A stretch of DNA of 44,466 nt from a virus, in IMG/VR virus record IMGVR_UViG_3300045988_053012, positions 1 to 44,466 of that record. One strand, given 5' to 3'. Shown piece by piece: positions 11,455 to 26,197 of the stretch. Each line of letters opens with the position of its first letter. Position 1 is the first letter of the stretch. The notes beneath the pieces were generated by a model, which saw only the letters and a list, made by a program, of their open reading frames with translations, ran no database searches and was not told where the DNA came from. Made by a program: the position numbers and the translations under genes.

Positions 11455-11530
11455 TTTGGAAATTAAAAATAAATAACTACCTTTGTGCCGTGGTTGATAT
11501 GACAACCCGACGGACGCGGCCGGTTCCGCG
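11455..11530 (+). promoter_or_regulatory. Early promoter A plus structured leader
   Basis: TTTG 11455-11458, then 19 nt, then TAccTTTG 11478-11485. Leader hairpin 1 is GGTTG 11492-96 / CAACC 11503-07. Leader hairpin 2 is CGCGG-CCGGTT-CCGCG 11515-11530. ATG at 11549. Confidence 0.65.
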
Positions 11531-11548
11531 ATTGAAACAACAACAGTT

Positions 11549-11782
11549 ATGGCAATGTTGAAATACACAACCCGTCAAATCAACGGCAATTACAAAATCA
11601 AGGTTTCCGGCCTGTACGATGGCAAGAAAATAAACACGTTGGTTGGAGTTTCGGGTCTTATTAAAATAGTTGACGACATCGAATTAACCAACCGTCTTTT
11701 GGACCGGGCCTTTGCCTGTATGGATGGCAAATGCGTTTGCAAATTGCGCCGTGGAATACGTGTCAGTTTTTACGTTCATTGA
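11549..11782 (+). CDS. Hypothetical protein
   Basis: 77 aa; first cistron after promoter A. Confidence 0.55.
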   Translation: MAMLKYTTRQINGNYKIKVSGLYDGKKINTLVGVSGLIKIVDDIELTNRLLDRAFACMDGKCVCKLRRGIRVSFYVH

Positions 11783-13307: not shown

Positions 13308-13432
13308 ACTTTATGGAAACAAATATAATCATCCAAGAGTTACGCGCCCGGGCTTCACTGGGTTGGAACCCGGAATAACAAGCGTGGTTCGACCAACAGG
13401 CCAACGACGCGCGGCCGGTCCAATGTGTCCGG

Positions 13433-13855
13433 ATGCGGGATGCGTTTACGCCGGAACAATTGCAATTCCTGTTCAAAAAACTTGGTTACAAGACACAACA
13501 AAAACAGTGTTACAGGAACGCGGCCGAATTGGTGCGATTGATTGGTGCGTTTACTTTGACGACGGCCCCAGTTCGATATGTTGAGGGTTTCGCGTATTGT
13601 GATGGCCTGTTATCTATCGAACACGCCTTTGTTAAGGTTGGCGACCTGTACATTGACCCAACATTTGAACGGGCCTTGCATTTGGACGTCCGTAAAGAAA
13701 TTTACGCATCTTGCATCGAATTGAACCCGGAAACGATGGACCGTTACCAATTGGAAACCGGCTTTTACGGGGAATTGTACCAATACGATTATTTATGCAA
13801 GAATCGGCCGGAATTGGCGGCCAAGATGCGGGTGCGGAATCCGCACAACCGTTGA
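13433..13855 (+). CDS. Transglutaminase-like / papain-like cysteine peptidase fold protein (putative)
   Basis: Cys-His-Asp layout: QCYRNAAELVRL ... VRYVEGFAY ... IEHAFVKVGDLYIDPT. The frame stays open upstream to an in-frame TAA at 13376 (see findings). Confidence 0.45.
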   Translation: MRDAFTPEQLQFLFKKLGYKTQQKQCYRNAAELVRLIGAFTLTTAPVRYVEGFAYCDGLLSIEHAFVKVGDLYIDPTFERALHLDVRKEIYASCIELNPETMDRYQLETGFYGELYQYDYLCKNRPELAAKMRVRNPHNR

Positions 13856-14085
13856 TGGATGCAAAAACCCCGCCCGGACGAATCCCGGCGGGGCGGTCAA
13901 AATACCGATGTGGGCGATACGATGAGGTAAAAAGACGCAACAAAGATAGGGAAAATTCGGCGATTGGCGAAATTCCCTATTTCTTTTTGTTTTGCGTTGG
14001 CTTTTCACGATACCCGGTTTGGGCCGAAATCTTGCACTCGGATTCAAGAAAAATGCACTTTTTTTCGTAAAAATTAAAAAAATTT

Positions 14086-14160
14086 TTTGGTTTTAAGAGG
14101 AAAGCACTATATTTGTACCCGGGTTCGATAATGAAACCCACGGCCCGGGCCGGTTCCCGG
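14086..14160 (+). promoter_or_regulatory. Early promoter B plus structured leader
   Basis: TTTG 14086-89 and TAtaTTTG 14108-15. Hairpin 1 is GGGTT 14121-25 / AACCC 14135-39. Hairpin 2 is CCGGG-CCGGTT-CCCGG 14145-14160. ATG at 14176. Confidence 0.65.
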
Positions 14161-14175
14161 TAAAGAACAAAAGTT

Positions 14176-15466: not shown

Positions 15467-15542
15467 TTTGGTAATTAGAAAATAATACTTATCTTTGTAT
15501 CCGGGTTAAGGAAATAACCCAACGGATGAGGCCGGTTCCTCA
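15467..15542 (+). promoter_or_regulatory. Early promoter C plus structured leader
   Basis: TTTG 15467-70, then 19 nt, then TAtcTTTG 15490-97. Hairpin 1 is GGGTT 15503-07 / AACCC 15516-20. Hairpin 2 is TGAGG-CCGGTT-CCTCA 15527-15542. ATG at 15564. Confidence 0.65.
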
Positions 15543-15563
15543 AACAAAATAAACGCAATAGAA

Positions 15564-15743
15564 ATGAAAATTAACATTGTTAAAAAAGGCTTGGATTCTA
15601 ATCTTAATGAAATAAAAGTTGTCGTAAAATATGATTCTATGGGTATCAATCGGGGAACATTTTATGTTGATGCAGACGGGGAGTTTGAAATGTCCGAATA
15701 TCTGGCAAATACCCTTTTCGAAGAAAATGTATGTATTTGCTAA
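15564..15743 (+). CDS. Hypothetical small protein (59 aa, below the track cutoff)
   Basis: MKINIVKKGLDSNLNEIKVVVKYDSMGINRGTFYVDADGEFEMSEYLANTLFEENVCIC. First ATG after the promoter C leader. The minus ORF 15540..15776 is its antisense shadow. Confidence 0.55.
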   Translation: MKINIVKKGLDSNLNEIKVVVKYDSMGINRGTFYVDADGEFEMSEYLANTLFEENVCIC

Positions 15744-23369: not shown

Positions 23370-23378
23370 CTGAAAATG

Positions 23379-23454
23379 TTTGGAAATATAAAAATTATCC
23401 TTATCTTTGTACCCGGGTTGAGGAAACAACACCACCGCCCCGGCGGGTTCCGGG
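23379..23454 (+). promoter_or_regulatory. Early promoter D plus structured leader
   Basis: TTTG 23379-82, then 19 nt, then TAtcTTTG 23402-09. Hairpin 1 is GGGTTG 23415-20 / CAAC(A)CC 23427-33. Hairpin 2 is CCCGG-CGGGTT-CCGGG 23439-23454. ATG at 23475. Confidence 0.65.
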
Positions 23455-23522
23455 ATACAAAACGACAAAGAATTATGGAACAGGTAACGAAATTCGGAAT
23501 GATTTATTGGTAAAACGTTGCA

Positions 23523-23774
23523 TTGCGTGAAACTTTACGCGCCGCGAACGCAAAAGATTACATCTTGCGTCGCAAAGTTGACCGCCGTTTTAAGGAAATA
23601 GCCAATGAACTTGTAATGGGTCGCGGATATGTTATTGCAACGGCGTTCGAGTTGGAACAGAAATACCCGGATTTGTTCAATGCTGGTGGCGTTGATTCAA
23701 AAAAAATGATTTGGGCTATTTCGTTTTCAAAATTTCGCGCGGGAAACAAAATGTGCTTTGTACCGGTTCGTTAA
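23523..23774 (+). CDS. Hypothetical HTH-like protein; ORF lacks its own ATG and is in frame with a 12-codon ORF (23475..23513) across a TAA
   Basis: The track start is TTG 23523. Sequence includes DYILRRKVDRRFKEIANELVMGRGYV (HTH-like). See the finding on 23475..23774. Confidence 0.4.
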   Translation: MRETLRAANAKDYILRRKVDRRFKEIANELVMGRGYVIATAFELEQKYPDLFNAGGVDSKKMIWAISFSKFRAGNKMCFVPVR

Positions 23775-23782
23775 ATAGACTT

Positions 23783-23853
23783 TGCTTCGTGGTGTAACGG
23801 TAACACCCCGGATTTTGGTTCCGGTAATCCACGTTCGAATCGTGGCGGGGCAA
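23783..23853 (+). tRNA. tRNA-Gln (anticodon UUG)
   Basis: 71-nt cloverleaf. Acceptor TGCTTCG/CGGGGCA (two G-U pairs). D arm GTGT-AACGGTA-ACAC. Anticodon arm CCGGA-TTTTGGT-TCCGG. T arm CCACG-TTCGAAT-CGTGG. CCA is not encoded. Confidence 0.8.
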
Positions 23854-23857
23854 CAAA

Positions 23858-23953
23858 GGAAATAAGGCGGAAGCGGCGAGGGTAAAATAAGTCCGCGACG
23901 GCGGCATAATATACGCACATTGTGCGGGTTCCGGCTTAGCCAACCTTATTTCC
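23858..23953 (+). ncRNA. Structured RNA candidate filling the inter-tRNA spacer
   Basis: Perfect 10-bp closing stem GGAAATAAGG / CCTTATTTCC. Internal hairpins CGCAC-att-GTGCG and CCGC-gacg-GCGG. Starts 4 nt after tRNA-Gln and ends 6 nt before tRNA-Leu. Not a cloverleaf. Confidence 0.45.
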
Positions 23954-23959
23954 CCACAT

Positions 23960-24040
23960 ACCCACGTGGCGTAATGGTAGCCGCGATTGATTCAAAACCA
24001 ATTGCCGTATGGCGTGCCGGTTCGATTCCGGCCGTGGGTA
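23960..24040 (+). tRNA. tRNA-Leu (anticodon CAA), class II
   Basis: 81 nt. Acceptor ACCCACG/CGTGGGT. D arm GCG-(taatggtagc)-CGC. Anticodon arm ATTGA-TTCAAAA-CCAAT (A-C at 31:39). 13-nt variable arm GCC-gtat-GGC. T arm GCCGG-TTCGATT-CCGGC. Confidence 0.7.
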
Positions 24041-24249
24041 CAAAGTTCTTTGAAATGCAATCTTTGATGTTTTTAGGCGTAAGACCGTCAACGCCCCGTG
24101 AAAAAATATGTGAATGTCACAGGCGTTTAAGTTGGCATTTTGCCGTAATACAAAATCACACTTTCCGGTAAAGTTCGTGCGAAGAATGGCCACAATAATC
24201 CAATTGCAAACCGAAAACCATAGATTGCATTTCTTTTGAAAAATACGGA

Positions 24250-24787: not shown

Positions 24788-26197
24788 ATGTACATTAAAA
24801 GATTGGAACTTTTGAATTTCCAAGTTATCGAACAGTTTTCCGCCGACTTTGACGGAACGGTTTATTTCGTGACCGGCGACAACGAATTAGGTAAATCCAC
24901 GTTGTTAAAAGCAATCGGCGCATTGTTGACCGGCCAACGCGACGACGTGTTGCGCAACGGCGCATCCAAGGGATTTGCCAAAATGGTTGTGGGCGACGAT
25001 GGCGAAGAATACGACGTACAATTGTCGTTCACAGAAGCGAACCCACGCGGAACGCTTACCATCAAGCAAAAGACAACCGGAATGGCGACCAACAATATTT
25101 CGATGTTGCAACGCATTTTCGGGTATCAAGATTTCGACGCGGTGGAATTTTCCCGTTGGTCCGAAACGGCGGATGGCCGCCGCAAACAAATTGCCGTGGT
25201 TAAGGCCCTGTTGCCCGAAAAGGTCCGGAACAGGATTGCGGAAATTGACGAAACCGTTACCACGATGAAAGCGGAACGCACCGGCGTAAACCGTGATGTC
25301 AAGACGTTTGCCGCCCTGTATGAATCCATCGAAAAACAGTTGGCCCCGGGCGACGTTGAGAAATACGCCGCACCCGTGGACGTTACCGCATTGATGGAAC
25401 GCCAAAAGACCAATGCGCAATTGATTGAAAAGGCCAAGACGGTACGCGCCACCGTTGCGCAACGCACACAACAGTTGGCCGAAATCCCCGACCGGATAAA
25501 AGTGGTTGACGAAACGTTGACCGGAGCGAAACGGCTCATTGACGAAACCGTTGCCGCCGCGAAAGCCGCATACGAAAAGGCCGTTGCCGACGCAAAGATT
25601 GCCCGCGAAAAGGTCGATGCCGCCCACGCGGAAGCAATCGCCGCAATCGAAGCGGAACGCAAGGCGTTTGCGGAACGCAAGGAAAATGGCGAAAATTGGT
25701 TGGCAAAGTATGAAGCCAACAACCCCGAAAAAACCGACGTTCCGGCCCTGTTGGCCAATGCTGAAGCCCACAACAAACGATTCAATCTTGTTTGCCAATT
25801 CAAGGAAAAGAAACAACAGTACGAAGCCGTCAAGGCCAAGGCCGAACAGATGGATTCTGACATTGACAAATTGGCAAGCGAACGCGCCGGGTTGATTGCA
25901 TCCGCCGAATTGCCGATTGCCGGATTGTCATTTACTGATGATGGGTTGACGTTGAACGGCATTCCGTTCGTCCCCGGCAAGGTGTCGGATTCGCAAACGA
26001 TGGAAATTGCGGCCAAATTGGTTATCGCATCAAATCCGAAAGTAAAGGTTTTCCGAATCGCCCGTGGCGAATCGTTGGGCCAAAAGCGGCTTGAAACAAT
26101 TATTGACATTGCCCGCCGTAACGGATTCCAAGGATTTATCGAACAGGTCCAGCGCGGACAAACCGAAATGATGGTTGAAGAATACACCGAACGTTAA
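24788..26197 (+). CDS. SMC/Rad50/RecF-like ATPase with a central coiled coil
   Basis: 469 aa. MYIKRLELLNFQ start; Walker A VTGDNELGKSTLLKAI; about 250 aa of coiled coil; C-terminal FRIARGESLGQKRLETIIDIAR. Confidence 0.6.
   Translation: MYIKRLELLNFQVIEQFSADFDGTVYFVTGDNELGKSTLLKAIGALLTGQRDDVLRNGASKGFAKMVVGDDGEEYDVQLSFTEANPRGTLTIKQKTTGMATNNISMLQRIFGYQDFDAVEFSRWSETADGRRKQIAVVKALLPEKVRNRIAEIDETVTTMKAERTGVNRDVKTFAALYESIEKQLAPGDVEKYAAPVDVTALMERQKTNAQLIEKAKTVRATVAQRTQQLAEIPDRIKVVDETLTGAKRLIDETVAAAKAAYEKAVADAKIAREKVDAAHAEAIAAIEAERKAFAERKENGENWLAKYEANNPEKTDVPALLANAEAHNKRFNLVCQFKEKKQQYEAVKAKAEQMDSDIDKLASERAGLIASAELPIAGLSFTDDGLTLNGIPFVPGKVSDSQTMEIAAKLVIASNPKVKVFRIARGESLGQKRLETIIDIARRNGFQGFIEQVQRGQTEMMVEEYTER

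Follow-up and report, generated by a model that had tools for sequence, protein, structure and literature searches.

The first gene of a transcription unit in the phage DNA analysed here (44,466 nt in full, hereafter the window) is split by an in-frame TAA at 23511, and this codon is very probably a recent, unprogrammed nonsense mutation specific to one lineage. Such a mutation had been one of the interpretations put forward from the sequence alone, and it is the one that gained support: the homologues all have a sense codon at this position and the nearest differ by one base, TCA to TAA. The comparisons described below establish the mutation, its polarity, its reproducibility and its independence of the neighbouring tRNA genes, and every feature by which a lineage-specific nonsense mutation can be tested appears in these sequence comparisons. 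The kind of event is ordinary and already known. As in ochre mutants of phages and in strain-specific pseudogenes, a single base change has produced UAA in an otherwise intact ORF, and close relatives keep a sense codon. Unlike ochre mutants, the allele is of natural origin and is carried in a wild population in the gut, and no suppressor host is known, or needed if the gene is dispensable.

We propose that a C-to-A transversion in one clonal strain converted Ser13 (TCA) of the first gene after the promoter at 23379 into an ochre TAA. Ribosomes starting at ATG 23475 would terminate after 12 codons, and the full-length 99-aa protein would most likely be lost. At best, some restart at TTG 23523, 9 nt downstream, would produce an 83-aa fragment without half of the first helix. 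The gene is probably dispensable, which would allow the nonsense allele to persist while the clone spread to many human samples. On this account a small accessory gene has acquired a premature stop in one strain, which matters little. The features discussed are listed in Table 1.

Table 1. Features of the split gene, its surroundings and the second ochre-bearing gene, in window coordinates.
Feature	Position	Strand	Basis
Bacteroidetes-type promoter-like site of the split-gene transcription unit	23379..23409	+	regex; conserved in relatives
Conserved 5' leader containing a pair of small hairpins, the latter ending at 23454	23410..23474	+	
Codons 1-12 of the 99-aa gene (MEQVTKFGMIYW), authentic start	23475..23510	+	homologues begin at equivalent ATG
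Premature ochre TAA, from TCA (Ser13) by C-to-A at 23512	23511..23513	+	comparison with related loci
Codons 14-99 and normal TAA terminator, undecayed	23514..23774	+	protein identical to intact P0139, P0141
TTG (Leu17), only nearby in-frame restart candidate; 83-aa product without residues 1-16	23523..23525	+	
tRNA-Gln, anticodon UUG, reads CAA/CAG	23783..23854	+	ARAGORN, Rfam
Spacer between the tRNAs, 105 nt, strain-private, 10-bp terminal inverted repeat	23855..23959	+	
tRNA-Leu, anticodon CAA, reads UUG	23960..24041	+	ARAGORN, Rfam
Second ochre-bearing gene of the clone; TAA 13376-78 from CAA (Gln22)	13313..13855	+	

Intact relatives and the origin of the stop

The layout described in the sequence-only reading held up throughout. 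Translation from ATG 23475-77 gives 12 codons (MEQVTKFGMIYW) before TAA 23511-13, and the frame then stays open to 23774, with 86 sense codons (NVALRETLRAANAKDY...FVPVR) followed by a terminal TAA at 23772-74. There is indeed no ATG close behind the stop, the first in-frame ATG lying 34 codons downstream of it, and TTG 23523 is the first in-frame start-type codon past the stop and the sole one nearby, opening an ORF of 83 aa. A regex scan places the promoter-like site TTTG-N19-TATCTTTG ahead of a 65-nt leader, the second hairpin of which ends 20 nt before ATG 23475, as had been claimed. The same promoter and leader unit recurs at 11455, 14086 and 15467, where the genes start at 11549, 14176 and 15564. 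Because the unit precedes these other genes likewise, ATG 23475 occupies the canonical start position.

Using the read-through translation as a query against 5.8 billion proteins, we recovered 14 homologues. Nine of them are uninterrupted proteins of 96-100 aa whose matches span 93-100% of the query; the remaining five represent mis-called starts, longer or shorter, one with a divergent C-terminus. Both halves of the split ORF align end to end with uninterrupted 99-aa homologues, and the open frame after the stop is therefore not due to chance. Residue 13 in the homologues is Ser or Ala, in the context YWSNVA or YWANVA. An 83-aa homologue (P0011) was considered as an independent short form and rejected, its start being mis-called in a locus that has the full ORF with ATG and TCG.

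We then compared codon 13 in the DNA of 11 related loci; in the wider sampling of relatives, viral_contigs and metagenome_contigs contributed only one locus each. The alignment with homologues suggested beforehand had looked to CAA in particular as the sense codon; this position is never CAA, and neither CAA nor a stop was found in any of the 11 loci. Instead, it is TCA in five (L001, L002, L004, L005 and L006), TCG in L003, and GCA or GCG in the remaining five (L007-L011, two of which are copies of one sequence). The closest relatives, those with TCA, are one substitution away from the stop. Since these closely related intact alleles carry Ser/TCA, the TAA is derived by a single C-to-A transversion at 23512. 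Over 2.3 kb, the locus L002 and the window share 98.3% identity, and within the first 60 nt of the gene they differ only in TCA versus TAA. At the protein level, the alleles P0139 and P0141, from the 90%-identity cluster, equal the window protein except for Ser at the stop position. The 86 codons downstream of the stop align with all homologues, which is trivially expected for a recent mutation.

The 99-aa protein and a possible restart

A full-library profile search with the 99-aa protein retrieved 123 representative clusters of ~90-110-aa proteins, which puts the family at 123 clusters or more at 50% identity. In an alignment of 65 members, A16 (present in at least 90%), T20, G51, Y52 and W80 hardly vary. 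W12 is shared by all nine full-length homologues (alignment A3) and is found in at least 90% of the sequences in alignment A1; position 13 is variable in the wider family. For structure, we ran AlphaFold2 on P0003, a relative 87% identical to the window protein, with a 9-sequence alignment. The resulting model (mbb66a8f5bcd8; pLDDT 90, pTM 0.80) predicts a confident alpha/beta fold with the elements H9-24, H34-48, E53-55, H57-63, E78-87 and E90-98. The protein has no Pfam or PHROG match; against the PDB, the profile search returned only EcoRV at E = 0.15 and Foldseek returned nothing below E = 1.9. The 99-aa protein represents an uncharacterised small phage protein family.

The position of TTG 23523, 9 nt past the stop, raises the question of whether the gene still yields a working product: ribosomes terminating at 23513 may reinitiate at this TTG and make an 83-aa protein that retains function. 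We regard this as unlikely. The TTG is called as a start by gene callers, the remainder of the ORF is intact, and three remote family members (P0196, P0235 and P0270) match the profile only from position ~18-20, although these short matches may reflect mis-called starts, as in P0011. Against a functional restart, TTG is rare as a start codon in this genome. Furthermore, L001, L004 and L006 carry TTT at codon 17, and TTT does not serve as a start codon; there is therefore no conserved internal start, and TTG 23523 is incidental. The 83-aa product would also be missing residues 9-16 of helix 1 (H9-24, pLDDT 90), including W12 and A16, and on this model it is probably impaired. From the truncation of helix 1 together with the loss of the conserved W12 and A16, we infer that the functional product is probably lost.

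The second ochre codon, the tRNA genes and the reading of UAA

A second TAA-split ORF had been pointed out in the window, and it is real: ATG 13313 opens 21 codons, followed by TAA 13376-78, 158 further codons and TGA 13853-55. The gene has more than 250 homologues; all 16 that were aligned, and 11 further intact cluster members, are continuous proteins of 180-196 aa with Gln22. A 98% relative (L024) has CAA at the Gln22 codon and one other difference in 161 nt. By these comparisons, the clone has independently acquired a further ochre codon, TAA 13376, through a C-to-T change. The 180-aa protein encoded by this gene gave no matches in the function searches. Its invariant Met41 (ATG 13433) is a possible restart. 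A 165-aa protein call (P0032) that seems to extend the gene was rejected as a real extension, as it is a genetic-code-4 call that reads TGA 13853-55 as Trp in L012-L014 (corresponding to window 13433-13930); it is a gene-call artefact and no evidence of recoding. Other ORF pairs in one frame, at 15741, 16849 and 44067, were considered as additional split genes and rejected, since each seems to be either two separate genes or non-coding.

As described beforehand, a tRNA-Gln gene begins 9 nt past 23774, and ARAGORN and Rfam agree on it. Eight of the 11 related loci, all with an intact gene, have a tRNA-Gln(UUG)/tRNA-Leu(CAA) pair behind it, and the window's tRNA-Gln shares an identical anticodon arm with the close relatives L001, L002 and L004-L006. 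Because the same pair and the same anticodon arm are found in relatives with an intact gene, the tRNA is independent of the stop. The comparison thus identifies the tRNA pair as an older, conserved part of the cassette, and its adjacency to the stop as coincidental. The T-arm and 3' acceptor of the tRNA-Gln are unlike those of the closest relatives and agree with the L008 lineage, whose gene is intact with GCA at codon 13; judged by sequence, the allele looks recombinant. We considered a stop-adapted tRNA-Gln allele and rejected it, given this match to a lineage with an intact gene and the unchanged anticodon arm. The acceptor stem is left with two G-U pairs, 4-69 and 5-68.

The spacer between the two tRNAs is 105 nt long in the window, compared with 8 nt in L001, L002, L004, L005 and L006; L008 has 74 nt of unrelated sequence in this place. 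A 10-bp inverted repeat (GGAAATAAGG...CCTTATTTCC) closes the window's spacer. Within positions 23855-23959 we found no tRNA and no Rfam match, and the fold z-score of -1.4 is not significant. A suppressor tRNA hidden in this spacer was rejected, since running ARAGORN at 70% with introns gave only one spurious, intron-containing call on the opposite strand. More generally, relaxed ARAGORN and the Rfam E-value mode find only Gln(ttg) and Leu(caa) and no suppressor tRNA with a UUA anticodon.

We counted codon and stop usage on 68 plus-strand genes. TAA terminates 41 of them (60%), TGA 23 and TAG 4. Since TAA ends 41 of the 68 genes, it is not reassigned and its efficient suppression would be costly. 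Reassignment of TAA would show as many in-frame TAAs and avoidance of TAA as a terminator; in-frame TAAs number two genome-wide, and genome-wide reassignment was rejected on stop-codon usage and on the intact large ORFs. Gut crAss-like and Lak phages reassign TAG to Gln or TGA to Trp with suppressor tRNAs. The window resembles them in coming from a gut Bacteroidales phage with tRNA genes and in-frame stops. It differs in that the anticodons UUG and CAA are not complementary to a stop, in having two in-frame stops in 44 kb, and in the 60% of genes that end in TAA. The pair can also be compared with phage tRNAs whose role is codon supply. It is retained throughout the lineage, and of the phage's codons for Gln 79% are CAA (34.2 per 1000), of those for Leu 65% are TTG (47.5 per 1000), so that the cognate codons of both tRNAs are heavily used by the phage. 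By the codon usage of the phage, both tRNAs would therefore probably supply codons that it uses heavily; what defines such tRNAs is a contrast between phage and host usage.

The sequence-only reading had also raised programmed UAA read-through by the adjacent tRNA-Gln. Known examples of programmed read-through are the Q-beta A1 protein, at UGA, and MuLV gag-pol, at a UAG decoded as Gln. As in these systems, an in-frame stop is followed by an open coding frame, and a Gln tRNA is a plausible near-cognate decoder. Unlike in these systems, the stop is unconserved, with Ser or Ala sense codons in the 11 loci and in ~25 protein alleles, and the upstream product is a 12-aa peptide instead of a functional protein. 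There is also no evolved context: no dedicated 3' stimulatory element has co-evolved with the stop, and the 60 nt around it are identical in the TCA-bearing L002 and L005. With an unconserved stop, an ancestral Ser or Ala codon, the tRNA next to intact genes and TAA as the main terminator, programmed read-through found no support.

A weaker form of the idea is incidental or assisted read-through, in which a presumably abundant tRNA-Gln(UUG) misreads UAA and yields some full-length protein with Q13. We consider this distinctly improbable. Spontaneous read-through of UAA in bacteria is normally well below 1%. The stop is conserved in no relative, the tRNA predates it with an unchanged anticodon arm, and the ancestral codon at 23511 encodes Ser, not Gln. 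Efficient suppression of TAA would extend 41 of the 68 phage proteins. Conversely, the tRNA-Gln(UUG) gene belongs to the transcription unit of the split gene, position 13 varies in the wider family, and the double-ochre clone, which carries what is the best near-cognate tRNA for UAA, occurs widely. At 13376 it is a Gln codon that was lost, so that read-through there would restore the exact wild-type Q22; however, in a genome with 34 CAA per 1000 codons, ochre codons arise most often from CAA. Nothing in the sequence points specifically to read-through of this kind. Insertion of Gln at UAA is chemically plausible, and PMC9481147, in the passage that cites Nilsson and Ryden-Aulin 2003 (its reference 58), reports Gln insertion at UAG and UAA in suppressor-free E. 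coli.

An extension of this idea, which we hold to be highly doubtful, is that the phage tRNA-Gln(UUG) raises near-cognate decoding of UAA and thereby keeps both ochre alleles partly functional, with Q13 in one protein and the wild-type Q22 in the other. If it were true, such buffering would explain the spread of the double-ochre clone among human hosts and would give phage tRNAs a modest new role as buffers of nonsense mutations. The peptide spanning the stop would in that case be FGMIYWQNVALR.

One clone, its genome and its leader element

A further suggestion made from the sequence alone was a two-cistron design, in which a 12-codon leader peptide regulates a separate, TTG-initiated gene. 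The short ORF does sit at the canonical distance from the promoter and leader. The homologues are nevertheless single, continuous 99-aa ORFs that begin at the equivalent ATG, so that the short ORF is not conserved in them as a cistron of its own; three loci have TTT at codon 17, and the split exists in one clone only, one base away from intact alleles. The suggestion is therefore not supported, and we rate it as extremely improbable.

Returning to the nonsense mutation, the stop is reproduced in independent data. TAA 23511 is present in seven assemblies (L015-L021) from at least six samples, which are 99.98-100% identical to the window over 5.5-18 kb. Their sources are several SRR runs of PRJNA217052, a Fiji community cohort, and two other ENA assemblies, and the assemblers of the TAA-bearing loci differ (MEGAHIT k127, SPAdes NODE and Logan contigs). 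In addition, the exact 83-aa product is found on 28 contigs and the exact 45-aa product, ending at the TAA, on 25, from JGI, Logan and ENA. TAA 13376 is read in L012-L014 and in L017, the last of which bears both stops. The allele TAA 23511 is thus real and belongs to one clone. The only argument for an error of sequencing or assembly in the window is the prior that metagenome assemblies have single-base errors, and such an error has a negligible chance of accounting for the same base in seven assemblies from at least six samples and different assemblers, with products on 25-28 contigs.

The TAA clone shows at most one mismatch in up to 18 kb. Because all carriers belong to one nearly invariant clone, the stop arose once and recently. 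For the same reason, dN/dS as a measure of continuing selection on the downstream part is uncomputable within the clone. Three observations run counter to the interpretation as a nonsense mutation. First, the clone with ochre codons at both 23511 and 13376 occurs in many samples, and the products could still be made. Second, the 86 downstream codons show no further decay, which is uninformative in a clone nearly without internal diversity. Third, W12 and A16 are highly conserved, and selection normally keeps the N-terminus. Losing the 99-aa gene may thus carry some cost.

The genomic context fits a dispensable gene. All long ORFs of the window are on the plus strand. DNA similarity to deposited phages is limited to the SbcC/RecN-like ATPase gene (24788-26197), at ~76% identity, and the matches are phages of 44-45 kb: Alistipes AS73P1, Parabacteroides PDS1 and PD491P1, and Bacteroides BKO1-3 and C1_85S2P. 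The window is therefore assigned to this group of Bacteroidales siphophages; by these similarities it represents a complete or near-complete genome of ~44.5 kb from an uncultured gut Bacteroidales siphophage, a distant relative of PDS1 and AS73P1. A tblastn search of 50,697 deposited phage records with the 99-aa gene found no homologue, and in PDS1 and AS73P1 the annotation of the region ahead of the ATPase gene lists no counterpart of the 99-aa gene and no tRNA. The 99-aa gene is probably accessory and dispensable, and the absence of homologues from these records and annotations fits an accessory, dispensable cassette.

We also compared codon differences around the two stop sites. L002 differs from the window by 17 nonsynonymous and 12 synonymous codon changes and L024 by 11 and 15, respectively, giving 28 nonsynonymous and 27 synonymous changes when pooled. 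These counts show weak constraint on the small early genes. In this genome, the opportunity for nonsense mutations is 0.065 relative to that for missense mutations, so that ~1.8 nonsense changes would be expected among 28 if they were tolerated like missense changes, and two are observed; this expectation is rough and biased, the compared regions having been picked around the stops. Even as a rough comparison, it shows that the pair of ochre codons needs no special mechanism.

The split gene also bears on annotation. Public gene calls of 125-133 aa (P0001, P0139 and P0143) begin at an upstream in-frame ATG, at 23376 in the window. That ATG sits inside the promoter and leader region, and the N-terminal extensions that it produces are annotation artefacts. 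Recognizing the stop is of value here, as the 45-aa, 83-aa and 132-aa calls in databases are artefacts either of the stop or of the ATG inside the promoter.

In one more distant relative (L003 2880-2953), the 99-aa gene follows an additional small ORF and another leader-like hairpin (CCGGGCGGATTCCCGG). This extra hairpin has no obvious promoter, and the L003 locus is without tRNAs. In the window, the leader element occurs in four copies (11455-11548, 14086-14175, 15467-15563 and 23379-23474), each with a promoter-like TTTG-N19-21-TAnnTTTG followed by the conserved leader of ~65 nt. Its hairpins are GGGTT...AACCC and a 5-bp stem around the loop CCGGTT/CGGGTT. Among nine leaders from the window and its relatives, three of the five pairs of the second hairpin are changed on both sides. 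From its sequence, the four-copy element may be a common regulatory RNA or DNA element of the early operons.
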